From IMG/VR virus record IMGVR_UViG_3300049172_000060, positions 1 to 46,610 of that record: a stretch of 46,610 nt of DNA; one strand, written 5' to 3'. Positions within the stretch are counted from its first letter, which is position 1, and every line of letters starts with the position of its first letter. This DNA is from a virus (lineage: Duplodnaviria > Caudoviricetes). The notes beneath the pieces were generated by a model. The model ran no database searches. It was not told where the DNA came from and saw only the letters and a list, made by a program, of their open reading frames with translations. The position numbers were made by a program, and so were the translations under genes. Of the stretch, positions 1,508 to 42,947 are shown in pieces.

Positions 1508-1596
1508 GCTCTTACCTTTTCTTTTGTGCGCACATTACCGTCGGCCACAACAGTAATATACTGAGACTTTTTGCGTTACTTCGGACCGGCCAGTCT

Positions 1597-1881
1597 TTAG
1601 TAACAAGGCGGGCAATAAAACGTTCGCTCAATCAGTTTGCCATTTGATAGTGAGACTATTTTGGATTCCCACTTTGGGTCACTGCGAAGCAAAACGAATT
1701 CACCACCACAGTCAGCGCAATCGCGCAAAACGACATCCGGTGATGGCTTGCCACAGAGGCAGCATACCACATGGCCGGTACCCGGTTCGACCACCCATTT
1801 AGCTTGCTTTAGGCCGAATGAGTGATAACAGGCGACTTGGGTGCGTTCAGCCGTGGTTAGGCGTTTTGGTTCGTTTGTCAC
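1597..1881 (-). CDS. hypothetical Cys-rich (zinc-binding) protein
   Basis: CCLC, CADC and CPPC pairs; GTG start at 1881 preferred over the track start. Confidence 0.6.
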   Translation of the reverse strand: MTNEPKRLTTAERTQVACYHSFGLKQAKWVVEPGTGHVVCCLCGKPSPDVVLRDCADCGGEFVLLRSDPKWESKIVSLSNGKLIERTFYCPPCY

Positions 1882-2206
1882 ACTTCGCCCCGTATCGCGA
1901 ATACGCCGCTGTTTTTGAAATGCCCAAGACCCCACCAATGTCATTCCATGACATGTAATTTGGATCAGCCTTTGGGAGATTATTGGCGTCGAAAATTTCG
2001 GTTTCTATGAAAACATTCAGGATGTCAACCATCTTTTGTGCAAGACGAATTCTTTCGCAATGGCTCCCTCGACTTGTTTCGAGAAGTCTGGAAAGAAAAG
2101 CTCCAGCACGAATCAGCTTTTCACGTTGCTGCATGACGCCCCCTATATAACTTAACCTCCTTCCCTTCTCGCCTGAATTCAGGGCTTGAACCGGGTCGCT
2201 GTCCAT
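1847..2206 (-). CDS. helix-turn-helix DNA-binding protein
   Basis: MSWNDIGGVLGISKTAAYSRYG is an actinobacterial-type HTH. Confidence 0.7.
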   Translation of the reverse strand: MDSDPVQALNSGEKGRRLSYIGGVMQQREKLIRAGAFLSRLLETSRGSHCERIRLAQKMVDILNVFIETEIFDANNLPKADPNYMSWNDIGGVLGISKTAAYSRYGAKCDKRTKTPNHG

Positions 2207-2251
2207 TTTTACAGTCCTCTCACCAATCTGTTACGAGGTGACGACATTCGT

Positions 2252-2521
2252 TCACTCGATGGGGTGAACTTCAATGTACTTTGCTTCCATTACCCGAGGC
2301 TTACATGGGTAAAACTCCCCCATCGTGCCCTGAAGAATTACATCGCCAACTCTTGCTTTACTTGTACCTTCAGTTGTCTCAATACACAAGACCTCTCGGC
2401 CATTTGCTTTTTCGATAAAAGCAAGGGGCCCGCAGAAATCGCGGATCTCATCAAAATTATCGCCAGTCCATACAATTCCAGTCACTTCAACTGGTTTGGC
2501 GATGTAGGTTTTAATGGTCAT
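2252..2521 (-). CDS. conserved phage hypothetical protein
   Basis: KPVEV..WTGDN...IETTEG...VGD.I..G..GEFYPCKP pattern is common in small phage proteins; start at MTIK. Confidence 0.75.
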   Translation of the reverse strand: MTIKTYIAKPVEVTGIVWTGDNFDEIRDFCGPLAFIEKANGREVLCIETTEGTSKARVGDVILQGTMGEFYPCKPRVMEAKYIEVHPIE

Positions 2522-2777
2522 AAAGCGCCCCACCCTCATTTTCCCAAGCTGCAATAATTGCTTTTTCCGCCCTAGCCCTTCTCCTTTGCTTCGTACTCTT
2601 TTTCACCCCCTTCCCAGTTCTTGACGTAATGTGCCAAATGTAACCCTCGCAGATATCGCAAAGGTAAGCCCTCAATGGCTTCTTAAGCTTGCCCTGTAAG
2701 CCTGAAATCATGTACTCAGCTTTAGACCTATCCTTAAATACCCATTTCTTTTTGCATTCAGTCCTTCGCCTTGACAA
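2511..2777 (-). CDS. hypothetical protein with RAYxCxxC..WHxTS zinc motif
   Basis: RAYLCDICEGYIWHITS; probable TTG start at 2777. Confidence 0.65.
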   Translation of the reverse strand: MSRRRTECKKKWVFKDRSKAEYMISGLQGKLKKPLRAYLCDICEGYIWHITSRTGKGVKKSTKQRRRARAEKAIIAAWENEGGALYDH

Positions 2778-3318
2778 TCTTTCGGCCTTCCCAGAACTTT
2801 TCGTTTTCCAACAAATCTTCCACAGTCGCCACAATAGGCTGATGCTTCGTGAGAATGTATTCGTCACGAATGTACACTTCGTCATTCAAAGTGTGCCACC
2901 TGTTATGACAACTGTGACAGATTCGGTGAACGTTACCCTTTTCATTGCTGGTGGTGTTTTTATCGGGCCCATGATGACGCGCCTGCTGAACATTCGCAGC
3001 GCAGCCCGTAATTGGGAACTTACCCCCACCGCAATTCTTCTTCATAGCCCATTCGCAAGTGCCCGGGTTAGCTTTGTCAATTGGGTACCAGCGTGCGGCT
3101 TGCTTTCGGCCTGTGCTATTTTGGTCGACGTACGTTGAGGGGTCCTTATAAGTGCGTCGCTCTACTTCTTCCTCATCTTCCGAATCAGTTTGGTCACCAG
3201 CCAAATCGCTAGTGTCCAAAACGTCACCAGAAAGATCAGGCTCAGCAGGTCCATTATTGCATTCCTCTACAGTTCGGCATTCATGTTCAAGACCAACATA
3301 GTGAGCGACGCACTTCAT
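2758..3318 (-). CDS. HNH endonuclease-like protein
   Basis: ARHHGPDKNTTSNEKGNVHRICHSCHNRWH HNH-type motif. Confidence 0.7.
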   Translation of the reverse strand: MKCVAHYVGLEHECRTVEECNNGPAEPDLSGDVLDTSDLAGDQTDSEDEEEVERRTYKDPSTYVDQNSTGRKQAARWYPIDKANPGTCEWAMKKNCGGGKFPITGCAANVQQARHHGPDKNTTSNEKGNVHRICHSCHNRWHTLNDEVYIRDEYILTKHQPIVATVEDLLENEKFWEGRKIVKAKD

Positions 3319-3329
3319 AAGCCCCCAAA

Positions 3330-3569
3330 TTACCTGACTATTGTCTTACGCCCTCGCATGGGGCGAAGAATCAAATTGCGGTCGAGGAGAATTTCCCTCA
3401 CCCTGGTAATGGTATGTTCGCCAACTTTGTAAATATTGACAAGAGCTGCTGTAGTAGGAATCGCTTCCGTCTGCTTATAAAAGCCCTGTTCAATAGCAGC
3501 CTGTAAATCATCTGCGATTTGCCGAGCCTTTGTTTCACTGTAAGGGGTTCGACCCCGCTGCTTTCTCAT
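3330..3569 (-). CDS. GntR-family winged-HTH regulator (DNA-binding domain only)
   Basis: RQIADDLQAAIEQG.Y.....IPTTAALVNIYKVGEHTI.R....L...LI....GRKT.V. Confidence 0.8.
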   Translation of the reverse strand: MRKQRGRTPYSETKARQIADDLQAAIEQGFYKQTEAIPTTAALVNIYKVGEHTITRVREILLDRNLILRPMRGRKTIVR

Positions 3570-3778
3570 TCAGGCATACCATCCTCGTGCCACTTCATGT
3601 GCTGAAACTTAATGTCTTCAGCTTCGTCCTGGTCGTCGGTGAAATCAACTATAGTGTTAATGCACCGCTCGTGATTACAAATGATGTCACGCCAATAGTT
3701 TTTAGGGTTAATCCTAATCATAACCTCAGGTACGTCGCTCAAAGGTTCACTCCGAAATTCCAGCCACGTTGTTGCCAT
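3566..3778 (-). CDS. hypothetical protein
   Basis: MATTWLEF start after AAAGGTGG; the upstream track extension lies in a structured non-coding region. Confidence 0.65.
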   Translation of the reverse strand: MATTWLEFRSEPLSDVPEVMIRINPKNYWRDIICNHERCINTIVDFTDDQDEAEDIKFQHMKWHEDGMPE

Positions 3779-3814
3779 TAGGCCACCTTTTGACAAAACG
3801 GTTTTGGGTACAAA

Positions 3815-4193
3815 ATTAGCGGCACTTTTGGGAGTCTGCGCCACAGTTGTTTGAACATAGTCGGAGAATGTTCAAACGCGTGAAAGTTTTTGGTGGCCGC
3901 CTCAAACTTCACACTGCGCGCACTTGCCAAAAGTGCCGCTAATCTTAAGTTTCCCCTTTCCCCCCGGTGTAAGAAAGGTCAAGAACCACCAGGGGGAATT
4001 AAAGGGAAGCAACTGCCCCAGGTAGTCTCGAACCTAGGGCAACCCGCTCACGAGTAGTATAGCCCAAAGGGCAGGCGTAGGAACCCCTGACAAGCCTCTC
4101 AGATCGTGTGAAATGAGACAACTTGTGTTGTGCGGGGGATCACTCGCCTAGAGTAGTCACCTTGCGTACCGGCCACTAGTGCGCTAGGTGACT
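3815..4193 (-). ncRNA. candidate structured non-coding RNA cluster
   Basis: ORF-free region; perfect 17-bp inverted repeat 3815-3831/3927-3943 encloses two hairpins; further hairpins at 3949-4010, 4014-4041 and 4155-4193; G-U pairs favour the minus strand. Confidence 0.55.
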
Positions 4194-4198
4194 GAAAA

Positions 4199-4378
4199 CT
4201 AACCCTCCAAAAACCAAACCTGATTCAAAACGTTAAGCTCATAATTGAAATGATGCTCAACGCCTTGAACGGTGATGGTTAGCTTTCCGTCTTCGTCTGA
4301 CACTTTTGGCTTGATGCGACGCCTAGCGCAATCAAAAAGTAGCGCCAGCAATCGGCCGACTTCTTTGTCGTCATTCAT
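4199..4378 (-). CDS. hypothetical protein
   Basis: MNDDKEV start overlapping the upstream stop; ends FLEG. Confidence 0.6.
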   Translation of the reverse strand: MNDDKEVGRLLALLFDCARRRIKPKVSDEDGKLTITVQGVEHHFNYELNVLNQVWFLEG

Positions 4379-4631
4379 AGTATTCCTGAAAACCTTCCGG
4401 CATTGCAACGTAAGTGAAGTAACTTTTCACTGTACTGTAATCATTCCGCCATGGGCCCAATCGACGCATATCAAATGGGTAGATAAATCGCTCATCCAGG
4501 AAGCGAACGAAATCGTAACCCATCCAGATGGAGTCTTTGGGGATCGTGGACCGTTGAGAAAACATCTTCAGGTCTACTTCTAAAATGAAGGCCCCAAAGA
4601 TTACTTCACTTTCCTTCAGGTAGAGTCTCAT
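4371..4631 (-). CDS. hypothetical protein downstream of Phd-like antitoxin
   Basis: ATGA overlap with the antitoxin stop; no recognisable toxin motif. Confidence 0.6.
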   Translation of the reverse strand: MRLYLKESEVIFGAFILEVDLKMFSQRSTIPKDSIWMGYDFVRFLDERFIYPFDMRRLGPWRNDYSTVKSYFTYVAMPEGFQEYYE

Positions 4632-4810
4632 CCCTCAAGGAACTTTCGCGCCTGCTTGTAGAATTCCATAGAAACGATTACTGCAACATCCTTACCCTGA
4701 AAGGTGAGGAAAGTTGGTTCGTTTCCATACTGAGCTCTGCCTACCGCCTCTGAAAGTTTAGCCCTCGCTTCCGTCATTGGCAGAGTGTGTTTTTCGTTTT
4801 CAGCCTTCAA
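4628..4810 (-). CDS. Phd/YefM-family antitoxin
   Basis: MTEARAKLSEAVGRAQYGNEPTFLTFQGKDVAVIVSMEFY matches the Phd/YefM N-terminal pattern. Confidence 0.85.
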   Translation of the reverse strand: MKAENEKHTLPMTEARAKLSEAVGRAQYGNEPTFLTFQGKDVAVIVSMEFYKQARKFLEG

Positions 4811-6893
4811 GGAACTTCCTCATCGCCTCGGCCAAATCGACATCGGCCTGGAATCCGTCAAGCATTTGCTTCTTCTGCTCCTGAATTGCATCGATCAATT
4901 CAGTTGCCGTGCCCTTGCAATGCAGCATGTGCACAATGGATTCATAGTCCGAGTCGATTCGACGCAGACGATCCATTGCCTGCTCTTCCTTGCCCGGGTT
5001 CCATTCGCGCTCAATCATGAGCAATTGCTGGGCGCCATTCAGGTTCAGACCCACCGATGCAGTCTTGTACTGGCAAATAAGCACGTCGTACTTGTGGTCG
5101 CCAACCTTTGTATAGTTGGTGTTGAAGTCGTCGATGCATTCTTGGCGAAGCGAATCCGGCATACCGCCAACAATCTTGGCTACACGCAGACCCTTTTCCT
5201 TGCAGCGTCGCTCCAATTCAGTTACCACGCTGCGGAACCAAGTGAACACTACAATGCGGTCGCCATCTTCGACGGCCTCGAAAGTAATGTCCTGCGCCTC
5301 ATCCATAATGATGGATTCACCAATTGGCGGAGTGCCAGGCGGCGGGAAAACAATCTGAGGGCTGTAACACTTACCTGGTTCGTCCTTGTCCTCATTCCAG
5401 CAAAGCGGGTCATGAGGGCAACCCTTGATTTGAATTCCATCCGGCCAACTTGCTGCCTGACGCATTCGCGTATACCACTGCAAAACTGCATCAGTAGTAA
5501 TTTGCTTGTCTTCCGAGAATGCGATTCGCGCCTTATCCCGCAGCAATCGAATGAATTCATGCTGCCTCGGGTACTGCTCCGGATCCAATTCAAGCCAATG
5601 GTGCTTGACTTCCTGTGGTGGCATTTTAACGCCAGCTGAATCACGAGTTCGACCGGTGTACTTCATTCCAAGCTTCTTTAGAAGTCGCTCGGAACCACCA
5701 TTGCCGAAAGTCCAGATGTACTTTTCGGCGCTGTAATCATAATCCCTATGACAATAGTCTTCGAGAAAGTACTTTTCCTTCGGGAAGCCTGTGCGGTCAA
5801 TCATGTTGAGCAGAGGGAACAATTCGGCAGGCTTATTCAGAATTGGCGTACCCGTCATGGGGAATACGTTCTTCACTGAACAGAAGTCGCCAAACTTGTC
5901 CTGCTCGAATTCACACGCGCCGCACATCTTACGACCCATGCGGTCCACGAATTCCTGTGCACCACATTGCGGGCAAAGATTCTCGGCGTAAATGATTTGC
6001 CGGACATCTTGCGAAGTCCTTGACTTTGTATCCTTGAGGACGTGCGCCTCGTCCATGAAAACGGTATCGAAACCACAAGCAATGAGCTTGTCATGGATTG
6101 TACGATCCTTACGCCAAACCTCGTAGTTCGTGATGACTACAATTGGCATTGGAATGTGACGGACCATGTCAAGGATATCCGCCTTTACGCCCCTTGCCGT
6201 TTGGTTCAGAACGTGCACCAAAGTCGGGTCAGTCCACTTTTTGAAAGCCCGCTCAAAATCAGGCAGCACCGACTTCGGCGTAAAGATGAGAACCTTTTGA
6301 GCTTTGCCTTGGGCGCGCAGCATGTCAATTGTAATGATAGCCTGAAGCGTCTTACCCAGGCCTGGCTTATCTGCCAAAAGACCTCGCTCGGCCGAAACCA
6401 AACGATGCGCGCCTTCAAGCTGATGAGGCAAAGCCTTCTTGCCGTCTTCAGTACCTACACGCCAAGGCTTGTTTGCTGTTGATTCATTGAGCGCCTTACG
6501 CATTGCAGCGAGCCGGTCAATTGCTGCCAGCTCTTGCAGAAGACGTGCACGCTCACGCTCGTAGATTTCACGAGTACGCTTGTCTTCACGGTTTTGTGTG
6601 TCGTTGTAGTGAATTGCCTCATCGATTGGCCTACGCCTACGAAGCAATTCAGTTTCGAGCATGCTGAAGTACGCCTTGATTAGACGCACGCGGTCAAGCA
6701 CGTCTTGAACTTCGAGCTTACTGAATTCTAGCTCGTCGTTTTCTTCTTTGCGCAGATCAATGACACCACTGATGTCAGGAATACGTACATTGAGGAAACC
6801 CAAGCGCTCGAAATCGTCATTCGACATACGCTTGTCGTAGCGATCCCCGCCAAATTGTGCTTCGAACGCTGACATATCGATGCGCTCGGACAT
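4800..6893 (-). CDS. SNF2-family (SF2) DNA helicase with zinc-finger insertion
   Basis: LLADKPGLGKT, DEAH, MTGTPILN, SVGLNL, WNP..EEQAMDRLRRI; CPQC/CGAC insert. Confidence 0.92.
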   Translation of the reverse strand: MSERIDMSAFEAQFGGDRYDKRMSNDDFERLGFLNVRIPDISGVIDLRKEENDELEFSKLEVQDVLDRVRLIKAYFSMLETELLRRRRPIDEAIHYNDTQNREDKRTREIYERERARLLQELAAIDRLAAMRKALNESTANKPWRVGTEDGKKALPHQLEGAHRLVSAERGLLADKPGLGKTLQAIITIDMLRAQGKAQKVLIFTPKSVLPDFERAFKKWTDPTLVHVLNQTARGVKADILDMVRHIPMPIVVITNYEVWRKDRTIHDKLIACGFDTVFMDEAHVLKDTKSRTSQDVRQIIYAENLCPQCGAQEFVDRMGRKMCGACEFEQDKFGDFCSVKNVFPMTGTPILNKPAELFPLLNMIDRTGFPKEKYFLEDYCHRDYDYSAEKYIWTFGNGGSERLLKKLGMKYTGRTRDSAGVKMPPQEVKHHWLELDPEQYPRQHEFIRLLRDKARIAFSEDKQITTDAVLQWYTRMRQAASWPDGIQIKGCPHDPLCWNEDKDEPGKCYSPQIVFPPPGTPPIGESIIMDEAQDITFEAVEDGDRIVVFTWFRSVVTELERRCKEKGLRVAKIVGGMPDSLRQECIDDFNTNYTKVGDHKYDVLICQYKTASVGLNLNGAQQLLMIEREWNPGKEEQAMDRLRRIDSDYESIVHMLHCKGTATELIDAIQEQKKQMLDGFQADVDLAEAMRKFLEG

Positions 6894-6899
6894 TTAGGA

Positions 6900-7037
6900 T
6901 TAGCCCTTCTTCTTTGACTTACGCTTGCGGCAGGGATCGCACAATCTGACAAACCCGCTTACCGTACTTGGTGTAAACCGACGCTTACAGTCAATACAAT
7001 TCATCGGGCGGGGGGTGATGTTGTCATACTTTCCCAT
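6900..7037 (-). CDS. small zinc-finger protein (45 aa, not in track)
   Basis: MGKYDNITPRPMNCIDCKRRF...LCDPCRKRKSKKKG fills the gap between flanking genes. Confidence 0.65.
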   Translation of the reverse strand: MGKYDNITPRPMNCIDCKRRFTPSTVSGFVRLCDPCRKRKSKKKG

Positions 7038-7217
7038 TCACTTCACCTTCTTTGTGAAGTAGCCCACAAAAGCATTCACGGTCATGCGCTGATCATTATT
7101 GCTGTGCTGATCTGATTCTTTGACGTATTGATACGTCACTTTACCCTGCTCTAGGTTTCGAACAATGACTTCCGTTCCTGCATTGGCTACCCAAACTTCG
7201 TTTTGCTCTGGTTTCAT
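7038..7217 (-). CDS. hypothetical protein
   Basis: MKPEQNEVW start after AGGAG. Confidence 0.7.
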   Translation of the reverse strand: MKPEQNEVWVANAGTEVIVRNLEQGKVTYQYVKESDQHSNNDQRMTVNAFVGYFTKKVK

Positions 7218-7237
7218 TGCTTTTCTCCTAGGTTGAC

Positions 7238-7373
7238 GTAACACACTGAGCCTCCCACCAATTATGACAGGGGTGGCTTTAACTGGCTTACCGCCAGGCC
7301 AACTCCCTTCGGTCGCTAGCCAGTCGGCAAACCAGCCTGCCATCCCCCGTCAAATTGGCGCTCAGCGTGTTAC
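7238..7373 (-). ncRNA. candidate rod-shaped structured RNA or processing signal
   Basis: nested stems TAACACGCTGAGC/GCTCAGTGTGTTA, GCCAATT/AATTGGT, TGACGGGGG/CCCCTGTCA, GGCTGGTTTGCCG/CGGTAAGCCAGTT; G-U pairs on the minus strand. Confidence 0.55.
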
Positions 7374-7900
7374 TTAACCACGTACCCCTTACGGAAATTG
7401 CCCGGCTCGGCGAATTCGATGAGATCGTCCTCGCGCAGAAGTGAAAACACTTCGCTCGCGGTCTTTGCGGTAATTTCCTTTTCAGCCATCATTTGCTTTT
7501 GGGTGACGAAATTATCCCGCGACACGAAACGCTTGTTAGTCTTACTGGAGATTTCTTCGAAATACTCCTGAGCAATTCGACCAGACAGGTGCTCAACATT
7601 GAACCTAGGCCCAACTTTTCCAGTCGGCTCAAGCTGGCCTTCAATCCTGGTCATTGCCTTCTTTGTTGCCTTTGAAGGGCCGAGCTCATTGATTCGATTG
7701 CGTGCCGGACGCTCATTGCGAACCGAATGCAGCATTGAGCCGATTTCAGCCTTCCTGAAACCGGTCATTGACTCGATTGTCTCGAAATCGAAGTCACGGT
7801 TGAGCTTATCGAGAAGCTTGGCGATTTTGTTCTTTGCTCGCTGCTCGTTGTAGTAACGTACTACTGCGAGCAGTTCCTTTTCAGCGGACGTGAGTGCCAT
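7370..7900 (-). CDS. hypothetical protein, possibly DNA-binding (HTH-like segments)
   Basis: 176-aa ORF; FETIESMTGFRKAEIGSML and a C-terminal winged-helix-like segment. Confidence 0.6.
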   Translation of the reverse strand: MALTSAEKELLAVVRYYNEQRAKNKIAKLLDKLNRDFDFETIESMTGFRKAEIGSMLHSVRNERPARNRINELGPSKATKKAMTRIEGQLEPTGKVGPRFNVEHLSGRIAQEYFEEISSKTNKRFVSRDNFVTQKQMMAEKEITAKTASEVFSLLREDDLIEFAEPGNFRKGYVVK

Positions 7901-8134
7901 TTAGTCCTCCGAGATCTGAACGCTGACATTGTGCTTGTTGGCGATGGGGAACGTGACCACATCACCATCTACCAGGCTTTCGAAGTTGTTGGTGACAACC
8001 TCCTGGCCGTAGGTGTTTTCAAGTTCGCGAAGCAGCGGGTACTTACTTTCGTTTGGGTTGGTTTCGAAGCTGTTCTCGGGAATCTTCTTATCGAGAACCC
8101 GCAGAACATACTTCACTAGCTTGACATTCGCCAT
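7901..8134 (-). CDS. hypothetical protein
   Basis: MANVKLVK start after GAAAGG; the upstream track extension overlaps a tRNA-like element. Confidence 0.7.
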   Translation of the reverse strand: MANVKLVKYVLRVLDKKIPENSFETNPNESKYPLLRELENTYGQEVVTNNFESLVDGDVVTFPIANKHNVSVQISED

Positions 8135-8158
8135 TTGATGGTGCCTTTCACTGGGGAG

Positions 8159-8210
8159 TGGACGTGTGGGATTCGAACCCATTTAGCCAACCATCTAATT
8201 GGCCACGCCC
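8159..8210 (-). ncRNA. miniature D-armless tRNA-like RNA with alanine identity elements
   Basis: GGGCGTG / GCCAATTAGATGGTTGGC hairpin / TAAA / TGGG-TTCGAAT-CCCA / CACGTCC-A, giving G1:C72, G2:C71, G3:U70, A73. Confidence 0.6.
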
Positions 8211-8217
8211 TACCTAT

Positions 8218-8358
8218 TTACTTGTTCGGCATCAGAGCAATCGCCGCAGCAAAGAAGCCAGCGACAAACCAAACGCCACGAGTGACATTGACCTCAAGGC
8301 GAGACATGCTGACCACTCGGTCAGACTTCTTCATCCAAGCCGAAATCGCGTTAACCAC
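8218..8358 (-). CDS. small membrane protein (46 aa, not in track)
   Basis: GTG after GAAAGG; MVNAISAWMKK...GVWFVAGFFAAAIALMPNK with a hydrophobic C-terminus. Confidence 0.6.
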   Translation of the reverse strand: MVNAISAWMKKSDRVVSMSRLEVNVTRGVWFVAGFFAAAIALMPNK

Positions 8359-8394
8359 TTTTGAACCTTTCGTTCAGCTAGCTTTTGCTAGCAG

Positions 8395-8506
8395 TGGCCC
8401 CGTCGGGATTCGAACCCGATGAAATGACCTGGAACGACAAACAATTAGCGGAGACTGGAGCCTTAACGCTAACCATTTGGCTTTCATTTCAATTCCTAGC
8501 GGGGCC
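8395..8506 (-). ncRNA. tRNA-like RNA resembling a tmRNA tRNA-like domain
   Basis: acceptor GGCCCCG/CGGGGCC-A, T-arm TCGGG-TTCGAAT-CCCGA, stemless GG-containing D-loop, long irregular central arm. Confidence 0.65.
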
Positions 8507-8533
8507 TTGACCCCCATTGCTGGGGGCGTTTAG

Positions 8534-8866
8534 CTAGATAGCCGGAATCAAGTGCGGGTAACCCCACGGCTCTTGAGTCTCGACCAATACATGTCCGTCG
8601 CCACCGATTCGACGAAAGTCCTTACTGAACTTCATGCAGTAAGGACCGACCGAATCGCCGCCCATTCCTCCACGCTCTACAACCTCTTCGCGCGTGGGGA
8701 TTTCCCATTCCTCTTCGGTGTAATACTTCCCACCCTTCTTGAAGAGAATCACCTTTGCCTTAGGTCGTTCAACCTTTGGTGAAGTGAGCGAATCAATCGC
8801 CAACTTTTCACCGGGCGGGTATGGTGTACGTCCGTGCTCGCTGAATTCAGCGTCGTGGCTTTGCAT
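8534..8866 (-). CDS. hypothetical protein
   Basis: 110-aa ORF with LFKKGGKYY and PWGYPHL motifs typical of small actinophage proteins. Confidence 0.7.
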   Translation of the reverse strand: MQSHDAEFSEHGRTPYPPGEKLAIDSLTSPKVERPKAKVILFKKGGKYYTEEEWEIPTREEVVERGGMGGDSVGPYCMKFSKDFRRIGGDGHVLVETQEPWGYPHLIPAI

Positions 8867-9034
8867 TTACCTACTCTTCTTTCGCGGCTTGACCTGGGCT
8901 GAAATTGTAATACCTGGGCCTTCGGGGTAATTTGGTTCCTTCTTCGCTAGATCCATTGCCTCGTTTGCACTGTACGCTTTGATTTCCCAGCGGGTGAAAT
9001 TGTTTACCTTCACCAGGTAGGTTTTGCGATTCAA
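8867..9034 (-). CDS. hypothetical protein (55 aa, not in track)
   Basis: TTG start; MNRKTYLVKVNNFTRWEIKAYSANEAMDLAK...; abuts both neighbours. Confidence 0.6.
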   Translation of the reverse strand: MNRKTYLVKVNNFTRWEIKAYSANEAMDLAKKEPNYPEGPGITISAQVKPRKKSR

Positions 9035-9181
9035 TTACGCTCCAGGAATGCAGAAGATGCAAGTGCAGTCGACACAATGCGTTTCCGGGTCGTCAGGGTC
9101 GTAACCCAGAAACGGACATGGGTCGCATTCGCATTCGGGGTTTGGCTCTTCGGGTTGCTTTGTGATTTCGCCGCTGCTCAC
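9035..9181 (-). CDS. small Cys-rich protein
   Basis: GTG start overlapping the upstream stop; CECDPC...CVDCTCIFC. Confidence 0.5.
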   Translation of the reverse strand: MSSGEITKQPEEPNPECECDPCPFLGYDPDDPETHCVDCTCIFCIPGA

Positions 9182-9336
9182 TGCCACATCATTCCGCACG
9201 AATTGCAGGTCCAGGGGCCATTTCCACTTGCGGAGCCACCGCAAACGGGGCAATTGACCCTGCATTCCGAACCACTCGGAACACTGCGCAGCGCAATGAC
9301 AAAACGCTGCCAGATGGTATACTTCTTGCGCATCAT
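9178..9336 (-). CDS. small zinc-ribbon protein (52 aa, not in track)
   Basis: MMRKKYTIWQRF...CPVCGG...WTCNSCG. Confidence 0.6.
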   Translation of the reverse strand: MMRKKYTIWQRFVIALRSVPSGSECRVNCPVCGGSASGNGPWTCNSCGMMWQ

Positions 9337-9339
9337 GTT

Positions 9340-9567
9340 TCAGTCCTCGATTTCGAGATGAATTGTGCCGTGACCCTTGAAAGTAATTGCATCCCCACGG
9401 AGCAAGTTCTTCCATGTTTCTTCTGACAGGTTGTAATCTAGCCAGTAGGCCTCAATGAACTCGCGAAGCCTTTCATCAGTCGAAGCAATGAATTCTTTTA
9501 CTTCAACTTCGAGTTGGCAAGTTGTTAAGTTCTTGTAGGTGGCTTCTTTGAACGCATGATATTTCAA
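9340..9567 (-). CDS. hypothetical protein
   Basis: ORF coupled to neighbours. Confidence 0.65.
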   Translation of the reverse strand: MKYHAFKEATYKNLTTCQLEVEVKEFIASTDERLREFIEAYWLDYNLSEETWKNLLRGDAITFKGHGTIHLEIED

Positions 9568-10058
9568 TGGTTCCCCTCAATGTGCGGGAACATCTTACGC
9601 ATGAGTTCATGCTCGGTTTCGTGTGCGCCCATAAATCCAGCCACGGCGCTTTCCATGAACGGCCCCAATTCGGCACGGAACTTGAGGAACCGAATGTTGG
9701 GCAGGTCGACACTAGGTTGAGATGAATGCTTCACTCGCATTACAATGAAAGCCTGAGTGAATCGCAAATTGTTGCGCGACGCATCATCACGCGTTGAGTG
9801 ATGTTCCACCTCAACGTTACCGTTCGGCATAAAATACACCGTAGTGTAGGGCCAATTGGTTGGGTCGCTGTCGGTTGAAAGCTCTTCGCGAAGTTCGCTT
9901 TCGAGTTCGCGATTCAGCTTTGCCCTTTCGAGCAGGCCTTCAATTGGCGAGCCGCTAACCCTTTCGGTTCGCATCATCTCTGCGTACAGATGAATTTGCG
10001 AATCACTCGGGGCGTTGCCCTTGAGTTCATTTGCGTGGGGAAGTTCTTCATGCGTCAC
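9564..10058 (-). CDS. hypothetical protein
   Basis: 164-aa ORF in a tight operon. Confidence 0.7.
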   Translation of the reverse strand: MTHEELPHANELKGNAPSDSQIHLYAEMMRTERVSGSPIEGLLERAKLNRELESELREELSTDSDPTNWPYTTVYFMPNGNVEVEHHSTRDDASRNNLRFTQAFIVMRVKHSSQPSVDLPNIRFLKFRAELGPFMESAVAGFMGAHETEHELMRKMFPHIEGNH

Positions 10059-10060
10059 GT

Positions 10061-10333
10061 TTAGGCGACCTTTCTTTTATGGAGAACAATCTTGCGCTCT
10101 AGGCCAATATCGTCGTTCACGTCAACTGTGTAGTCAATTTTCCAGTCGACTACTCGCAAGAATGAAAGTTCCTTCGCGTGCTCGGTAAGCACACTACGAA
10201 CAAACTCTCCTGCAATTTTGAAGTCATAGCATTGTGCAATCTGGCAGCACACTTCCAAGAAGTCGTGTGTTGTGCCATGATGTATGAATGGCCCATCCCC
10301 ATCATCTAGGCCATGGAACCAAAACTCAAACAT
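10061..10333 (-). CDS. hypothetical protein
   Basis: MFEFWFHG start after AAGGAGG. Confidence 0.65.
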   Translation of the reverse strand: MFEFWFHGLDDGDGPFIHHGTTHDFLEVCCQIAQCYDFKIAGEFVRSVLTEHAKELSFLRVVDWKIDYTVDVNDDIGLERKIVLHKRKVA

Positions 10334-10730
10334 CGCTCTCAGGGTCCTCCTTTTCAAATGAACACTCGCCATGCTCATTGTGATGGCGTCGGTGAGTTGC
10401 TGACGCCTTCCAAATCTTTGGGTAGTTGCAATTGGCGGGGGTGCTTTCAATGTCACCCTTGAATTCAGCCCAGCGAATTGCACCAAGAATTGCACCAGCT
10501 GTGCGGCTAATTGAACCGTCCTTTCGATCTGCCCATGCTACAAGTGCGGCAGCAATTTCACGGGCAGTGCGGGGATTAACGGACGGCGCAACCAATTCAC
10601 CACCCTGTTCGTCAATGAAACTGAAATCAGTCTCCCGGAGCTTAAGGTAGGTTGCTGAGTCAATTTCCAATTCGTATGGCATGCCCTCGGTGATTGCGTC
10701 GATCATTTCGACCACTTTACGCGTTTCCAT
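10326..10730 (-). CDS. hypothetical protein, paralog of 11002-11505
   Basis: shares Y.(L/F).ID.AT...(I/V)DEQG..LV......T.R..A.A...W with 11002-11505. Confidence 0.75.
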   Translation of the reverse strand: METRKVVEMIDAITEGMPYELEIDSATYLKLRETDFSFIDEQGGELVAPSVNPRTAREIAAALVAWADRKDGSISRTAGAILGAIRWAEFKGDIESTPANCNYPKIWKASATHRRHHNEHGECSFEKEDPESDV

Positions 10731-10839
10731 TAATGCACTCCTCCTGGCATTCGTCAGAGCAAAAGATACCGTACTGGCGTGCGTTATTTTTACAATTCTC
10801 GTTAACGCACTTCATTTCGATGACTTCTTCAGTGGTCAC
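10717..10839 (-). CDS. small Cys-rich protein (40 aa, not in track)
   Basis: MTTEEVIEMKCVNENC...FCSDEC. Confidence 0.5.
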   Translation of the reverse strand: MTTEEVIEMKCVNENCKNNARQYGIFCSDECQEECINGNA

Positions 10840-10841
10840 GC

Positions 10842-11012
10842 CTATTCACCATTTCGTTCATCGCAAGAAACGCTGTGGCCCTGACGAGTTTGGCAACGTG
10901 CGCAGCAAAAGCCCACAAAGTTAAATTTTGCTCTTGCGTATTGCTTTCGGTTACAGATTTCGTCTTCGCACTTTTCTGACTTCAAGTCAGGGTGCCTATT
11001 TTCAGTGTTCAT
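10842..11012 (-). CDS. small Cys/His-rich protein
   Basis: MNTENRH...CEDEIC...FCCARC...HSVSC. Confidence 0.55.
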   Translation of the reverse strand: MNTENRHPDLKSEKCEDEICNRKQYARAKFNFVGFCCARCQTRQGHSVSCDERNGE

Positions 11013-11505
11013 GTCCGCATGCACCCTTCTTCTTGAGCTCGTAGTGAATGTAATCGAGAGCGCGATTGGCGTCCCGAAGGGTTGCGTGGTCGCGTTCCTT
11101 GTTGGCTTGAAGTGCAATCTTTCGCAGGTCGCTCTCATTGCGCTTCAAAGTTTCGACGCTCATAATGGGCGTCATTCGTGCGTACCAATCGGCACGCGAA
11201 CCATTGACCGGGTGACCCTTCTGGGGCAATTCGAATAGGGCGCAGAACTTAATCAGCGCGTTCATTTCGTCGCCGTTTTCGGGGCGCATGTCCTGCTTGA
11301 CGTTACACCAAAGAATGAACGCCCCGGCCAATTGGCGAATTGTGGTGACATCGTAAAAATTGTCAACAAGTCGATGCCCCTGTTCGTCGACCATGTCGAT
11401 TCCCTCGGGGCAAATGCGAACCCAAGTGGCTTCATCGATTTGGAAGTCGTATTGTTCCTCCTTCTGAATTGCACTGACCATTGCGCGCACGTCTTCAACG
11501 TTCAC
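11002..11505 (-). CDS. hypothetical protein, paralog of 10326-10730
   Basis: same shared N-terminal domain as 10326-10730. Confidence 0.75.
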   Translation of the reverse strand: MNVEDVRAMVSAIQKEEQYDFQIDEATWVRICPEGIDMVDEQGHRLVDNFYDVTTIRQLAGAFILWCNVKQDMRPENGDEMNALIKFCALFELPQKGHPVNGSRADWYARMTPIMSVETLKRNESDLRKIALQANKERDHATLRDANRALDYIHYELKKKGACGHEH

Positions 11506-11666
11506 TTGTCCAGCTTTCCATAGTAGAAGAACATTCCAACAACAGCAGCCAGAAAACCAATGGCCACAAGCGCCATTTCCATTCGAGTGTCGGAATAGAC
11601 TAGCGCGCCAATGAATGCGAAATAAATGGCGGCCAATCCGTAGCCGAACTTAATTGTTGCTTTCAC
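11502..11666 (-). CDS. small two-TM membrane protein (54 aa, not in track)
   Basis: MKATIKFGYGLAAIYFAFIGALVY...MALVAIGFLAAVVGMFFYY; GTGA overlap with the next gene. Confidence 0.65.
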   Translation of the reverse strand: MKATIKFGYGLAAIYFAFIGALVYSDTRMEMALVAIGFLAAVVGMFFYYGKLDK

Positions 11667-11688
11667 TTCTCACCTAACCTTTCAAGGC

Positions 11689-11718
11689 CCGGCTCAAAGC
11701 TGGGAGACTTTGAGCCGG
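11689..11718. other. perfect 11-bp intergenic hairpin
   Basis: CCGGCTCAAAG-CTGGGAGA-CTTTGAGCCGG. Confidence 0.5.
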
Positions 11719-11730
11719 ACGTTCAATGGA

Positions 11731-11916
11731 TCAGGGCTCCATTTCAATTCTGACTTGAATTCCCTTGAAGGCTGCGCCTACCATTGCTGCGCCGCACAGT
11801 ATTGCGACCAGTACGAGCACCTTTGAGAAAGTCCGCCGAGCGGAGCGCTCGTTTGAAATTGAATGGTGCGCTACTTGGTAGCTGTGCTTCGGTTTCCGGT
11901 GTTTCCCCCGTGCCAT
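11731..11916 (-). CDS. small membrane protein
   Basis: basic MARGKHRK N-terminus and one hydrophobic helix. Confidence 0.6.
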   Translation of the reverse strand: MARGKHRKPKHSYQVAHHSISNERSARRTFSKVLVLVAILCGAAMVGAAFKGIQVRIEMEP

Positions 11917-11921
11917 TTGTA

Positions 11922-12755
11922 CTAGCGCCTCTCATTCGGAGCCCCCAACATTTCCCGAGCATGCCGAATGCGCATAAGCTCATGGGTTTCACGGGCTGCG
12001 AAATGGTCGACGCAAAGGAAACCAATCTTACCGCCATCATTACGAATTGCGCGTTCACGTTCATCGTGAATTGCTACAAGCGTATTCATCGCACTACGGT
12101 ACGTGGTCAGAAATGATTCTACTTCAGGCTTGCCAAACTTGTTGGTGAGCGTCAAAAGCCAAAACTTACTGACATTGGCATTAGGGTAAACGTCGACCTC
12201 GTCGACAGGGTCATCCCTGCGAACAACAAAGTCATCGAGCCCGTAGAATTCGAGGAAGTCTTCACGACTTTCCTTTGAACAGAAAGCGAACCTTGTTTCA
12301 CCGTGCGTTTCGGCGTATTCGTCAACCGTGGAGACAGTCATGTCGCGCTTAAAGGGATTTAGATTCCACGCTTCAAGCAATTCGACGAAATGGAAGTGAA
12401 TGTGCTTCGTGTGCGTAGGCAGCTCATCAGGCCAATTGAGCGAAGTCTTGTAACCTGAAAGACGATCGTGGTCGGCAATGTCGGCAGCCATCTTCGGAAT
12501 GATTTCATCGAGTCGGTCTTCGATGAGCTTCATTGCCCCCGCGATTTCCACCCGATCCGATTCGGTGAGCATCATGACATTTTGGTCAGCCAGCTCAATC
12601 ATTCGCTCATACTCGACATAATGGCGGCGCAGAACCTGTGGGGTCATTTGGTGAACATGTTCGGTAATTCGCTCAACCAAACCAGGTTCGTACTTGTTGC
12701 CCGGGTAGTCAACTACAAAGTTTGCGATGTCTTTCGTTTCAGTCACTATACCCAC
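11922..12755 (-). CDS. hypothetical protein
   Basis: 277-aa ORF. Confidence 0.75.
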   Translation of the reverse strand: MGIVTETKDIANFVVDYPGNKYEPGLVERITEHVHQMTPQVLRRHYVEYERMIELADQNVMMLTESDRVEIAGAMKLIEDRLDEIIPKMAADIADHDRLSGYKTSLNWPDELPTHTKHIHFHFVELLEAWNLNPFKRDMTVSTVDEYAETHGETRFAFCSKESREDFLEFYGLDDFVVRRDDPVDEVDVYPNANVSKFWLLTLTNKFGKPEVESFLTTYRSAMNTLVAIHDERERAIRNDGGKIGFLCVDHFAARETHELMRIRHAREMLGAPNERR

Positions 12756-12838
12756 CTAACTGGTGCGAGACTTTGTTTGGTGACTGTGGGGGTAAATCAG
12801 CCTAGCGAAATGGCCACTAGATCACCAGGCTGAGAGGT

Positions 12839-13051
12839 TTAGTGATGGTGCGGAAAAGCGCAGCCCCACGATGTATTACATTCCGCCAAATGATGCTCTC
12901 GGCTCTTACTTTCGTCGCTTGCGACTACTTCACGACAACTAATGCACATGCGGTCTGTCAGTTCAGGGTTGGTGCTGCAAACGCCATTATCAACATGGAT
13001 TTTGCGCAGCTCTTCGGGGGTTGGCGTTTCGAAAGGGGGTTCATAGTCCAT
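12839..13051 (-). CDS. small Cys/His-rich protein
   Basis: CISC, C..WGC..PHHH. Confidence 0.6.
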   Translation of the reverse strand: MDYEPPFETPTPEELRKIHVDNGVCSTNPELTDRMCISCREVVASDESKSREHHLAECNTSWGCAFPHHH

Positions 13052-13053
13052 TA

Positions 13054-13710
13054 CTACTCCGACCTCATGTATTCGACTGCCAACTTGAAAAGCTCGGGGT
13101 CTTCCTTTGTGAGCTCACGAACTGCAAGCCCAATTTTGTCGCGGTAGTCTTCAAACCAAACAGCTGAATCAACAAAGCCCCTAAGTTGCGTCAAAGCGAA
13201 CTCAAGGTCTTGAATTGCCGTGTGCAATTGGGTGTTGACGTTCTTTAGGGCTTCTGAATTACCAGCCTCGCCAGCCGACAAAATGGCAAACAACATCATG
13301 CGTCGAATGCCATGCTGCGACTTTTCACTAAGCAGGTTGATGCTCTTTTTGAGAGGCCTCAAATCAGGGTCACTCATCAGCTTGACGAATTCGCCCACGC
13401 CGATCAAATTTCCACCGAATGGGACCAATTCATCCTTTGGGTTGCCTGCGAATGTAGCGCTCAACTTGCCATAAGTTTGAGCATTACCCCCAGACTTACC
13501 AAATTCTTTGAGCTGCCCAACCTTGCAAAGGCTGGTTACCGCGCGGCGAATAGTTTGTTCGCTCAATCGGTTCACGTGATCAAGCTTGTCATTTACTCGA
13601 TGCGTGATTTCGCGAATGGTCAGCTTGTCACCATCGCCGAAAACCTCATAAACCCTGCTTCGGTTTGTGAGCTTAACAACTTCCTTTGTGCTTACATTGT
13701 CTGTCATCAA
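13054..13710 (-). CDS. winged-HTH protein, candidate replication initiator or regulator
   Basis: LTIREITHRV...LSEQTIRRAVTSLCKVGQL; lies next to an iteron-like repeat array. Confidence 0.6.
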   Translation of the reverse strand: MMTDNVSTKEVVKLTNRSRVYEVFGDGDKLTIREITHRVNDKLDHVNRLSEQTIRRAVTSLCKVGQLKEFGKSGGNAQTYGKLSATFAGNPKDELVPFGGNLIGVGEFVKLMSDPDLRPLKKSINLLSEKSQHGIRRMMLFAILSAGEAGNSEALKNVNTQLHTAIQDLEFALTQLRGFVDSAVWFEDYRDKIGLAVRELTKEDPELFKLAVEYMRSE

Positions 13711-13772
13711 TTTGATGGTTCACCACCTTTCAATGTTCCAGAAGTTTCGAGGGGTGGTCGGTATGCCCGTTT

Positions 13773-13983
13773 TTACACGTGGAAGAGAACGTGTCACTCA
13801 CGTGTAAGGGAACGTGTAAGTCATTTTGGCAATGTGTAAAAGTCGCAGGTCAGAGGGGGTCTGATGTGTAAAAGTCATAGCCGGGCTGCGAGATCGACAC
13901 TCCTTTCAGTCGGTCTCTCAGCCCCGGCGTCCTGTCTTACAGATGATACAGGAAGTGTCATACACGTTGGGCGGAACGTGTAA
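13773..13983. repeat. iteron/operator-like array, candidate replication origin
   Basis: A(C/T)GTGT(A/C)A at 13789, 13800, 13812, 13832, 13864 and 13976, inverted at 13773 and 13961; ATGTGTAAAAGTC occurs twice. Confidence 0.6.
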
Positions 13984-14111
13984 ATGTCCGATTCGGGGTG
14001 TGTTGACCCTCTCTGCCCTGAGTTGGTCTGCTATGGCCCTAGTTAGCCTAGTTGGGGTAGTAATGCTACTAACAAGGCGTTTGGGCTAATTCAAATGTTG
14101 AGGGCAAATGT

Positions 14112-14255
14112 TTAGGGGTGACACTTACAAGTGAACATCCACGAAAACCAATCGCACACTTCATTGCCATCGTCGTCGACATGCTTGCCATCGAATTCGC
14201 TGTCATGCTTGATGCAAACATCGTGCTGGTTCTTTCGACAAGCGTTTTCGGGCAT
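14112..14255 (-). CDS. small Cys/His-rich protein (47 aa, not in track)
   Basis: MPENACRKNQHDVC...CKCHP after GGGAG. Confidence 0.5.
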   Translation of the reverse strand: MPENACRKNQHDVCIKHDSEFDGKHVDDDGNEVCDWFSWMFTCKCHP

Positions 14256-14402: not shown

Positions 14403-14405
14403 AGA

Positions 14406-14528: not shown

Positions 14529-14547
14529 TGCGTTGCCTCCTACCCAG

Positions 14548-15738: not shown

Positions 15739-16127
15739 GAAGCGAGAATGGCCACACTTCACCCCTAGTCCAAAAGGGTTCACATGTGTGACCAAACTTG
15801 CTGCCACCTAAGCAGATGCTTAGGGGTAGCTTGTCAAGCATTTGGGGATAGCCGAACCACGGAACACCAAAAGGTGACGTTGGCTCAGCTATTCAAACGG
15901 GCCTGCTGATTTGACCATTGCTTCCGACGGTTTCAACTTATGCGGTGTGGGAGTACAAACTTCCCAGGGAAGGCAATTTCTGACCTGTCGAATGCGGTGA
16001 ACCAGTGGGTTCCCGTCGAATGTGCTTGTGAAAGCTGCGCACGTTTCACAACGTTCACGCCTTCAAATGGCAGCAGTATTTAGTTCACAAGTAACGAGCA
16101 GCTTTCACCACAATCGCCGTGAGGCGA
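15739..16127 (-). ncRNA. candidate structured non-coding RNA cluster
   Basis: consecutive stems at about 15796-15831, 15848-15892 (12 bp), 15923-16020 and 16028-16108 (11-bp perfect); no credible ORF. Confidence 0.5.
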
Positions 16128-16664: not shown

Positions 16665-16707
16665 TGTTCTTACCTTTCGTTGTGAGGCACGGCCATGCCT
16701 CAATTGG

Positions 16708-40808: not shown

Positions 40809-41648
40809 ATGGCCACAGGGTTTGATAGTTTCAAAGCTAAGCTAGGCATCGGTAGTCCGACGATGCGTGGCAAGGGTTTCAATTACACGCCGACCATTAT
40901 GGCCCAGGGTCAAACGACTGATTCAATTGGTCAAAGCGTGCTTGACAAATTGGGTCAACGCAAAGACGCGGGCCAGTCGATTTATGACAATATGAAACAG
41001 CAGGGCACAAATCGCCTTGCAACTGATTTGGTAAATAAATCGGCCGGCCTGAAGTTTGACGAATTCGGCAAGCCTGAACTTAAGCTCGGCGATTTCGGTA
41101 ACCTATTTCAAAGCCGAGTCAAAGGCATTAGCGAACGCGGTGATTTGGCAACCCAGGCTGCCGAAAGTAGACAGGCCTACAAAAACGCAGTCAACATGCA
41201 AAACCTGGGCCAATACGGTTTCACTGGCGAATTCAGTGTTGGCCCGAGTGGCAGTACCGGAACTGACATTCCTGGAGCGTCATCGAACAATGTCGGTGCT
41301 AAAGCTGCATCAATGGCAATGCAGGTCGACAAGAATGGCACCGGCTATGTCTGGGGCGGTAATTCACTTTCAACCGGCGTCGATTGTTCCGGCCTCGTGC
41401 AGCAAATTTACCGACGTCTTGGCGTAAGTGTACCGCGAACCACTTACGAACAGGCCAAGCACGGCAGGAAAGTTTCAGTTGCCCAAATCAGGCCTGGCGA
41501 TTTGGTATTTTACCGAGGCCTCGACCACGTTGGTATTTACATCGGTAACGGCAAAATTGTGCACGCTGCAAATCGAAACCTAGGCGTAATCACTTCGGGC
41601 TTGAACAATAGCAACGGTGCGCCTAGTCTGGTATTGCGACCCTACTAA
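40809..41648 (+). CDS. NlpC/P60 cell-wall peptidase
   Basis: YVWGG...GVDCSGLVQ...PRTT...PGDLVFY...HVGIYIGNGKIVHA. Confidence 0.93.
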   Translation: MATGFDSFKAKLGIGSPTMRGKGFNYTPTIMAQGQTTDSIGQSVLDKLGQRKDAGQSIYDNMKQQGTNRLATDLVNKSAGLKFDEFGKPELKLGDFGNLFQSRVKGISERGDLATQAAESRQAYKNAVNMQNLGQYGFTGEFSVGPSGSTGTDIPGASSNNVGAKAASMAMQVDKNGTGYVWGGNSLSTGVDCSGLVQQIYRRLGVSVPRTTYEQAKHGRKVSVAQIRPGDLVFYRGLDHVGIYIGNGKIVHAANRNLGVITSGLNNSNGAPSLVLRPY

Positions 41649-41664
41649 TGAAGGAGGTGTAAAG

Positions 41665-42234
41665 ATGGCCGTAAGTTTCGGTTCAGAGAACAATTTGAAT
41701 TCGATTATGAGCCAGCTGGGACAGATCGGACAAAGAGGCACATATACGCCCCAAATGAAGCTGCCCAAGCCAAAGGCTCCACAGGCCCTACAGCCGTTCT
41801 CAGGACTGCCCTCGGGCCTTGGGTCCAATTCCCAGGTTACCGCCGGTACAGGGTCGGTTCCGGGCGATCTCGGGCGTCTCATGAGGGCTATCCGGGGCCA
41901 GGAGTCGGGGGGCAACTACCGGGCCACAAATCCCTCAGGAGCCTCTGGAGCATATCAAATCCTTCAGAGTAACTTTGTCAATTCGGGGGGTTGGGACAAA
42001 GAAGCTCTGGGATATGACATTTCGTACAACCAATTTATGAACAGCCCTCAAATCCAAGACAAGATTGCTGCCTACAAGTTGGGGCAGTATTTGAAGTCGC
42101 GTGGAATGGCTGGCGCTGCCGCAACATGGTATGGCGGCGATTGGGGCTATAAAAACATGTACAACAAGCGCCCTCAGAATGGCTACCCGTCGATGTACGA
42201 ATACGTGATGAGCATTCTGAATAGAGCTAAGTAG
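41665..42234 (+). CDS. lytic transglycosylase-like protein
   Basis: AIRGQESGGNY.ATNPSGASGAYQI...QDKIA...WY.G. Confidence 0.85.
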   Translation: MAVSFGSENNLNSIMSQLGQIGQRGTYTPQMKLPKPKAPQALQPFSGLPSGLGSNSQVTAGTGSVPGDLGRLMRAIRGQESGGNYRATNPSGASGAYQILQSNFVNSGGWDKEALGYDISYNQFMNSPQIQDKIAAYKLGQYLKSRGMAGAAATWYGGDWGYKNMYNKRPQNGYPSMYEYVMSILNRAK

Positions 42235-42245
42235 AGGGGGGTCCT

Positions 42246-42449
42246 ATTTCTGACGAGCACCCGAAAACATTTCGCGAGGTTGGAATCATGCTCAACCAAA
42301 TGCGAAATGAGCAGACCGCCGCAAGAGATGAATTTCGCGATGGACTTCGTGATATCAAATCAGGCCAGCAAAAGGTAATTTGGTGGGTCGCTGGAATGGT
42401 TTCTTCACTTGTTGTTGGTGGCATCCTGGGGTGGGTGTTCCAAAAATAG
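42246..42449 (+). CDS. XhlA-like small membrane protein (not in track; probable ATT start)
   Basis: ISDEHPKTFREVG...IKSGQQKVIWWVAGMVSSLVVGGILGWVFQK: coiled coil plus C-terminal TM. Confidence 0.6.
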   Translation: MSDEHPKTFREVGIMLNQMRNEQTAARDEFRDGLRDIKSGQQKVIWWVAGMVSSLVVGGILGWVFQK

Positions 42450-42577
42450 AACGACCTAGAAAGGTGACCCTAAGCTTTAGTCTTTAACTAGGCTTTAGGT
42501 CGGGCAAAGTAGAGTAAAGTCGGCAGATGAAAAAATCCGTTCAACACGCTGTCACCACACTGGACACAAGTTGAGCG

Positions 42578-42913
42578 TTGTCTTACCGTATACATGTGCC
42601 TAGCCAATTCGGATGGCAAGCAGGCGCAGCGTGCAAAGGAGTACCGTCATACCTATTCTTCCCTGAAGAAATGGAGCGGGAAGGTTTCAAGGAAAACCCG
42701 CAATTCAAAGGTAGAAGCGGTAAAGACTACTGCGCCAATTGCCCGGTAGAAGCAATATGCCGTGAATTCTCCGTGCTGCACGACGAAGAAGGCATATGGG
42801 GGAATACCACAACGGGCCAAAGAGCTCGTAGGTATCCACGGGATGAAAGGTTTGAAATGCGAAACGACCAGGAAGATTTGGGGAATTATTACCCCCTCTA
42901 CGGTCATAGCTGA
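42578..42913 (+). CDS. whiB: WhiB-family Fe-S transcription factor
   Basis: WQAGAACKG...FFP...CANCPV...C...EGIWG.TT..QR. Confidence 0.9.
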   Translation: MSYRIHVPSQFGWQAGAACKGVPSYLFFPEEMEREGFKENPQFKGRSGKDYCANCPVEAICREFSVLHDEEGIWGNTTTGQRARRYPRDERFEMRNDQEDLGNYYPLYGHS

Positions 42914-42947
42914 AGTGGCCATCAGCTAAAACCCAACCCCCCACATG

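Follow-up and report, generated by a model that had tools for sequence, protein, structure and literature searches.

What reads the loop of a small hairpin that recurs, on stems with no resemblance to one another, between the genes of a soil phage? The question is raised by IMG/VR virus record IMGVR_UViG_3300049172_000060 (Caudoviricetes), a complete 46.6-kb record with direct terminal repeats; the whole stretch analysed, of 46,610 nucleotides, is called the window here, and related sequences are given by G and L numbers. A first-pass annotation had listed seven hairpins with the hexamer GUGGCC, or a near variant, in the loop, and had proposed a dispersed RNA regulon bound by a phage or host protein. 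All seven were found in place, each folding with the hexamer at its apex. We propose another partner, a structured RNA of ~240 nt encoded by the phage itself (3809..4049, minus strand). Since its tip, GGCCAC, is the exact complement of the fixed loop, this RNA likely docks on many messages.

A fixed loop on changing stems

The loop is less uniform than the strict G-UGGC-C tetraloop that had been described. The hexamer does stand at the apex, but the minimum-energy loops at 4155, 12797 and 42907 measure 7, 13 and 8 nt, respectively; the loops of relatives are often of the 7-nt form N-GUGGCC, and loop size overall ranges from 4 to 13 nt. The stems are indeed unrelated, the arms of orthologous hairpins being ~33% identical around a loop that stays fixed. 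The expected reliance on G-U pairs was borne out as well: G-T outnumbers A-C by 63 to 34 on the GUGGCC strand (P 0.004; 43 hairpins lying outside protein matches), which favours the transcript. That the hexamer is always on the sense strand holds generally but for one conserved exception at 3893 (plus); read on the transcribed strand, this copy forms the tip of another RNA.

As a word, GTGGCC is not over-represented in the window (27 copies; the reversed control has 25). When every position was examined for a stem centred on a hexamer, strong apices carried 5 of the 14 sense copies in the window and none of the 13 antisense copies; against a background of 2.8%, the sense count places GTGGCC first among 4046 hexamers (P 2.8e-5). 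For the window alone this enrichment is not significant after correction (Bonferroni 0.12), and with a laxer apex threshold GTGGCC no longer ranks first. For the relatives the motif was fixed beforehand. In the four complete genomes G001-G004, GTGGCC is at the apex in 21 of 50 cases (background 4.8%, P 4e-15, rank 1); strand was called automatically there, and two or more sites that are truly sense were counted as antisense. G019, G023 and G034, scanned with slightly different thresholds, gave 13 of 48 (P 9e-7, rank 1 of all hexamers). These two out-of-sample rankings, together with the swapped-arm controls given below, rule out a chance origin, and we hold it virtually certain that the hairpins are a real RNA element. 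Another hexamer, TTACGA, occupies 4-5 of 13 sense-strand apices in the window and 6 of 19 in G034; these may be UNCG-like loops.

Site A2 (1533..1558, minus) precedes the ribosome-binding site of the exonuclease gene. Its orthologues were located by the exonuclease start, without use of the motif; of 12 close relatives, 11 have the GUGGCC hairpin and the twelfth has GUGGUC, whereas none of five genomes of the sister clade described below has it. The arms, with an identity of 0.33, fold at -14.6 kcal as they are and at -5.2 kcal after swapping, and 1 of 132 swaps reaches the own mean. Directly after the 1597 stop lies a weak tandem hairpin that the first-pass annotation lacked, site A1 (1583..1596, minus), which carries the variant CUGGCCG. 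Eight relatives have an orthologous GUGGCC hairpin at A1, variants occur in the window, L068, L069 and G004, and the swapped-arm control agrees with that of A2. Site D (12797..12833, minus) follows the 12839 stop, upstream of the gene at 11922-12755, and is present in five genomes (own arms -16.5, swapped arms -6.8 kcal); the hairpin was not found in G004. Site B (4155..4193, minus), 5 nt past the 4199 stop and upstream of the putative promoter of the RNA, occurs in eight genomes, in one of them with GUGGUC. Its swap control is weak (20 of 56) because the arms are partly conserved (identity 0.63).

Site F (16683..16702, minus), which follows a stop and precedes the next ribosome-binding site, carries the variant AUGGCCG in the window; GUGGCC stands at this position in G002, G003, G004, G007, G012 and G034, and none is present in G001 or G019. 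Site G (42907..42928, plus) spans the stop codon of whiB, upstream of a separate strong hairpin, with GUGGCC in G001, G003, G004, G019 and L069 and AUGGCC in G002; none was seen in G023 or G025. The hairpin of site E (15739..15765, minus), upstream of an extended -10 box, is conserved at that position in none of ten relatives. The box itself, TGCTAGAAT at ~15722-15730 (minus), lies upstream of the gene at 14600-15679 and has similar counterparts in G002, G003, G012, G019 and G034.

The hairpins are either no more than ~30 nt from a stop or 10-35 nt ahead of a ribosome-binding site. Their orientation tracks transcription on both genome arms. Judged by sequence context, none of the window hairpins is followed by the U tract of a canonical intrinsic terminator; sites B and H (for H, see below) were not scored in the terminator scan.

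A predicted structured RNA with the complementary tip

The RNA at 3809..4049, whose ends are approximate and predicted, folds into two hairpins and a rod, P1 to P3, with a minimum free energy of -119.9 kcal (z -8.79; none of 200 shuffles as good). Double-sided changes are seen at 26 of the 39 consensus pairs in an alignment of nine sequences. In five of five cases the transcript strand is 5-25 kcal more stable than its reverse. A TATACT -10 box at 4056..4061 (minus), without a canonical -35, is the putative promoter. It is kept in five of five aligned genomes, and boxes of the type TA[TC][AGC]CT occur at the same position in both clades; the promoter scan found no full -35/-10 pair, and no terminator was scored at the 3' end of the RNA in the window's clade. 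P1 (4008..4049) has a loop that we take to be T-loop-like. P2 (3952..4007) is a long pyrimidine/purine hairpin indicated by both fold and covariation. P3 (3811..3947) has a 21-bp basal helix, a conserved 4x4 internal loop (CAAG 3923-3926 / GACU 3833-3836), an optional side hairpin and an apical hairpin, whose loop GGCCAC (3893..3898) is the predicted kissing loop and is invariant in nine of nine aligned RNAs. A model of the rod (R1) recovers the held-out G002, G023 and L068, and in 101 Streptomyces genomes it gave one match, to the phage contig only.

Neither the hairpins nor the RNA belong to a known RNA family. A search of Rfam 15 with the whole window at E<=5 gave one unrelated sub-threshold match, positions 3700-4250 at E<=10 gave just a 14.7-bit miRNA fragment, and the loci of five relatives gave nothing at the gathering score; this agrees with the first-pass annotation, which did not recognise the motif as a described one. 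Window 1-20000 had no BLAST match among annotated phages, and neither did the RNA of the window or that of the sister clade. In the literature no description of the motif or the RNA was found, most subscription papers and the PMC2864571 and PMC5737381 supplements, which could hold motifs outside Rfam, being beyond our reach; the accessible parts of PMC11979758 and PMC5737381 had no bearing on either.

Site H (3768..3799, minus) is a GUGGCC hairpin immediately 3' of the RNA. It had been said to bury the ribosome-binding site and AUG of the gene at 3778, and in the window it does lie over AAGG and the AUG; relatives, however, often keep the hexamer and not the hairpin, which folds in the window only. 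The hexamer occurs <=45 nt past the end of the RNA in 6 of 10 genomes and the core GUGGC in 8 of 10, usually unpaired. In these (the window's group and G025) the GUGGC often is apparently the GUG start of the next gene. Two further probable GTG starts that read GTGGCC, at 465 (minus) and 27829 (plus), could be additional unpaired targets. GTG-GCC starts stand behind a Shine-Dalgarno-like word in 9 of 25 against 0 of 18 cases (P 0.006), a count that includes doubtful frames and on which we do not rely.

These features suggest that one phage RNA, transcribed from the TATACT box, would pair its GGCCAC tip loop-to-loop with GUGGCC hairpins on many messages. It would kiss in cis with site B upstream and site H downstream, and in trans with the others; whiB is on the opposite strand, and therefore the contact there must be in trans. 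That the loop of the RNA is the partner of the hairpins we consider probable. The variants of the loop are in line with this, since at orthologous sites most of them keep six pairs with the RNA of their own genome. GUGGUC (G003, G019) does so by wobble; CUGGCCG and AUGGCCG are found where the RNA reads C before GGCCAC (window, L068, L069), and UGUGGCG where it has A after GGCCAC (G004), six pairs being kept in each case. The variant GGUGGCAC pairs over 6 bp with the presumed CGCCACC loop of the G025 RNA, which was identified solely by its position.

The outcome is the least certain part of this reading. Most likely the RNA would repress early, recombination and replication genes, whether by stabilising the terminator-like hairpins that have no U tract, by blocking initiation or by creating an RNase III substrate. 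We lean towards repression in trans through docking of the RNA; the sign of the control is a guess, proposed by analogy with P4 CI and RNAIII.

The sister clade and the competing explanations

In a tree of the helicase nine of the sequences with a GGCCAC tip form one group (support 95/92), with G025 beside it, and seven others form a sister group (98/96), the joining branch having 86/83. The same locus in the sister clade encodes an RNA that is built in a similar way but ends in a different tip; 27 of its 43 pairs covary. GUGGCC apices are absent from this clade (0/18 and 0/7). Its RNA is followed by a terminator whose loop is complementary to the tip in seven of seven sequences, and this partner hairpin, with its U tract, has the form of an intrinsic terminator. 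Tip and terminator loop change together, the versions being GAGGCG:CGCCUC, UGAGGC:GCCUCA, GGGCG:CGCCC and AGGAGU:ACUCCU. When each tip was scored against the 45 nt following each RNA, own partners reached 100, the permuted ones 77.4 (0 of 20000 permutations as high), with P 0.024 within the sister clade. The two clades appear to show a step from a cis contact between loop and terminator to a regulon with many targets.

A number of observations weigh against the pairing of tip and hairpins, or against its history as outlined. The permutation result reflects mostly a few lineage switches and not 17 independent points, and within the window's clade there is no pairing signal (57 against 56.0, P 0.37) because the tip is invariant there. 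The model of neither clade finds the RNA of the other, nor that of G025, and therefore their common origin rests on position, synteny and build. Dispersed partner hairpins were not found in the sister clade (CGCCTC at 0 of 14 apices). In G001-G004, GGGGCC, which would mispair with the tip, is at 8 of 35 apices; the whiB loop of G002 makes 5 bp only, and the change from C to U seen in loop variants is a common mutation generally. No partner stands just downstream of the RNA in G004 and G023. A second contact between RNA and target, which six base pairs usually need, was not found, and in the apical hairpin of the RNA taken alone G-T to A-C is 3 to 5 (n=7), a count too small to decide the strand.

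The partner next to the RNA could also fit a cis leader, with a tip that holds the start of the following gene (the terminator, in the sister clade) until dispersed hairpins titrate it away as other transcripts accumulate. A partner does lie directly after the RNA in both clades (the terminator loop in the seven sister-clade sequences, GUGGC near the next start in the eight of ten mentioned), the genes that follow look unrelated by eye, and the RNA of the window's clade is without a scored 3' terminator. On the other hand, G004 and G023 have the RNA and the dispersed hairpins with no downstream site, and decoys have no need for tandem placement or for closeness to stops and ribosome-binding sites; we think this improbable as a whole.

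Of the regulon first proposed, the level of action stands: covarying stems, fixed loop, G-U bias and position at gene boundaries all point to RNA. The protein partner fares less well. Protein-binding sites typically keep the loop constant and leave the stem free to vary, the UGGY core is kept in the variants seen at orthologous sites, and many proteins of the clade have no family; a nuclease or an RNA-binding protein, of phage or host origin, could then read the UGGY loop, the complementary RNA loop being incidental or secondary. Such a protein would leave unexplained the invariant complementary tip, the register-shifting variants and the covariation in the sister clade, and would have to accept loops of 4 to 13 nt. 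No RNA-binding family was found among 30 proteins scanned with Pfam, and in 400 kb of host chromosome GTGGCC is at the apex in 143 of 670 cases, compared with 19-29% for nine control hexamers, which is no enrichment. A protein is not our first candidate because the tip of a phage RNA is complementary, the hairpins are confined to the clade of that tip and the host shows no enrichment; we give it a small chance.

Binding of the UGGC loops to the NCCA end of uncharged tRNA, with the GCCA core of the RNA tip as a mimic of NCCA, would follow the T-box rule of UGGN:NCCA pairing as given in the accessible part of PMC7778990, and the phage also has tRNA-like RNAs. It is very unlikely: there is no T-box match in Rfam and no specifier domain, the motif is in a terminal loop instead of a bulge, the variants keep six pairs with the RNA rather than four, and a host tRNA would serve both clades whereas the hairpins are found in one. 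Hairpins of single-stranded DNA (N4-like promoters or priming signals, with 3893 as a reversed element) would suit the folding of both strands at several sites and a G-T bias that alone cannot tell RNA from single-stranded DNA, but orientation follows transcription on both arms, the sites adjoin stops and ribosome-binding sites, 3893 lies within a larger fold more stable on the transcript strand, and no RNA polymerase match was found in the scan of the window proteins, which makes them equally far-fetched.

Docking of the phage RNA thus remains our preferred reading. A bolder version of it, which we regard as doubtful, is an RNA machine that kisses "zip-code" hairpins on both strands through six bases and cuts, terminates or licenses translation at gene boundaries, alone or with a recruited enzyme; it would have evolved from the cis contact with the terminator and be retargetable by six bases.

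Other relatives were scanned for comparable systems. A pattern scan gave 17 stretches, of which 5 are relatives; the remaining 12 had no match to a window protein and were dropped. A pattern search for the sister-clade arrangement recovered only the known G021. In G005, GGGCAC is at five of six sense apices (P 7e-7, uncorrected), with no partner identified. No convincing motif was found in G024, G026, G027, G029 and G033, G031 being left out of the scan. G027 and G029 share a different structured non-coding stretch (regions L111 12378 and L113 12284), which follows a -10-like box downstream of the helicase and matches neither RNA model.

The phage, its host and the known systems

The capsid protein is 42-46% identical to those of Arthrobacter phages Jasmine and Adat, Microbacterium phage Shocker and Cellulosimicrobium phage DS1. 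In Jasmine, Shocker and DS1, GUGGCC is by inspection not top-ranked at apices, and the RNA models give no match. Window proteins matched whiB, terminase subunits, helicase and exonuclease. Among those scanned there was no match to an integrase, nor to a DNA polymerase, unlike in Jasmine, Shocker and DS1; the primase/helicase frame is just 381 aa. The host is likely Streptomyces, because the best matches of the endolysin are Streptomyces phages and the assemblies of two Streptomyces isolates, S. griseosporeus JCM 4766 (capsid 88%) and NPDC012769, each contain a relative as a whole contig. The ends of these contigs overlap by 132 and 95 nt, respectively, and a plasmid-like carrier state is possible; repression by the RNA would suit such a state. 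Two DNA sequencing runs show no differences over 1400-4400, and the sequencing runs listed as holding the phage include no RNA run.

Two tRNA-like elements lie on the minus strand of the window. The one at ~8393-8508, missed by ARAGORN, has a 7-bp acceptor, a stemless D region and a T-arm, and its anticodon arm is replaced by a long irregular helix; we take it to resemble the tRNA-like domain of tmRNA. Similar elements are present in G001, G004, G021, G022, G023, G034 and G035. The other is a mini-tRNA of ~60 nt at ~8155-8214, with acceptor, one hairpin and T-arm, also seen in G003, G004 and G005; its 5' strand holds the GTGGCC at 8201, in paired form. Elsewhere, a Phd/YefM antitoxin is encoded at 4628-4810 (minus; Pfam E 7e-10); none of the scanned neighbours is a recognised toxin. 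A protein at 28336-28587 (plus), within the head module, reaches the Pfam cut-off for the Acb2/Tad1 hairpin domain and is a possible anti-defence sponge. AATT words are very frequent in the whole window (GAATTC 51, CAATTG 69, with ~11 expected per random hexamer).

If the proposed pairing is correct, Streptomyces phages contain an uncatalogued RNA family with docking hairpins throughout the genome. A close relative with both RNA and hairpins is available as a whole contig in the assembly of a culture-collection strain, S. griseosporeus JCM 4766, and the portable six-base address could serve as a tool for gene control in Streptomyces.

To our knowledge, P4 and P1 provide the main examples of phages whose lifestyle is controlled by RNA. 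The CI RNA of P4, as described in the accessible part of PMC4825925, is a structured phage RNA with complementary targets (seqA/seqC) up- and downstream, in an operon directed toward replication-type genes. The window RNA likewise has complementary sites on both sides, B (4171) and H (3781), but no homology to CI or C4 by Rfam or model match, and it would make a 6-nt loop-loop contact with 6-8 targets over both strands. It is presumably also larger than CI RNA.

RNAIII of Staphylococcus aureus, according to the accessible part of PMC2837412, binds several mRNA hairpin loops with a shared signature (coa, rot), the stacked loop-loop helices being cut by RNase III. The window RNA and several of its targets similarly have complementary apical loops, predicted to pair. 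The target loop GUGGCC is, however, no Shine-Dalgarno sequence; at A2 and F it precedes the ribosome-binding site, and only at H does it overlap a start region. Moreover, the target stems appear to exist just to display the loop, no second duplex was found and the system is internal to the phage.

C4 is a structured phage RNA that pairs with a separate target motif. The C4 antisense RNA of P1/P7 (RF01695) and the target motif c4-a1b1 are both listed in the accessible part of PMC2864571; the window RNA has no match to RF01695 and differs in host and build. With T-boxes the hairpins share a UGGN core complementary to NCCA, but theirs is in terminal loops, without T-box structure and with a partner restricted to one clade. 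The pRNA of phi29 is a phage RNA with kissing loops that pairs with itself for DNA packaging, whereas the partner loops in the window belong to mRNA, and terminase subunits are encoded there. The RNA and its proposed docking hairpins are uncatalogued, yet would be of the kind that regulates through loop-loop RNA contacts.

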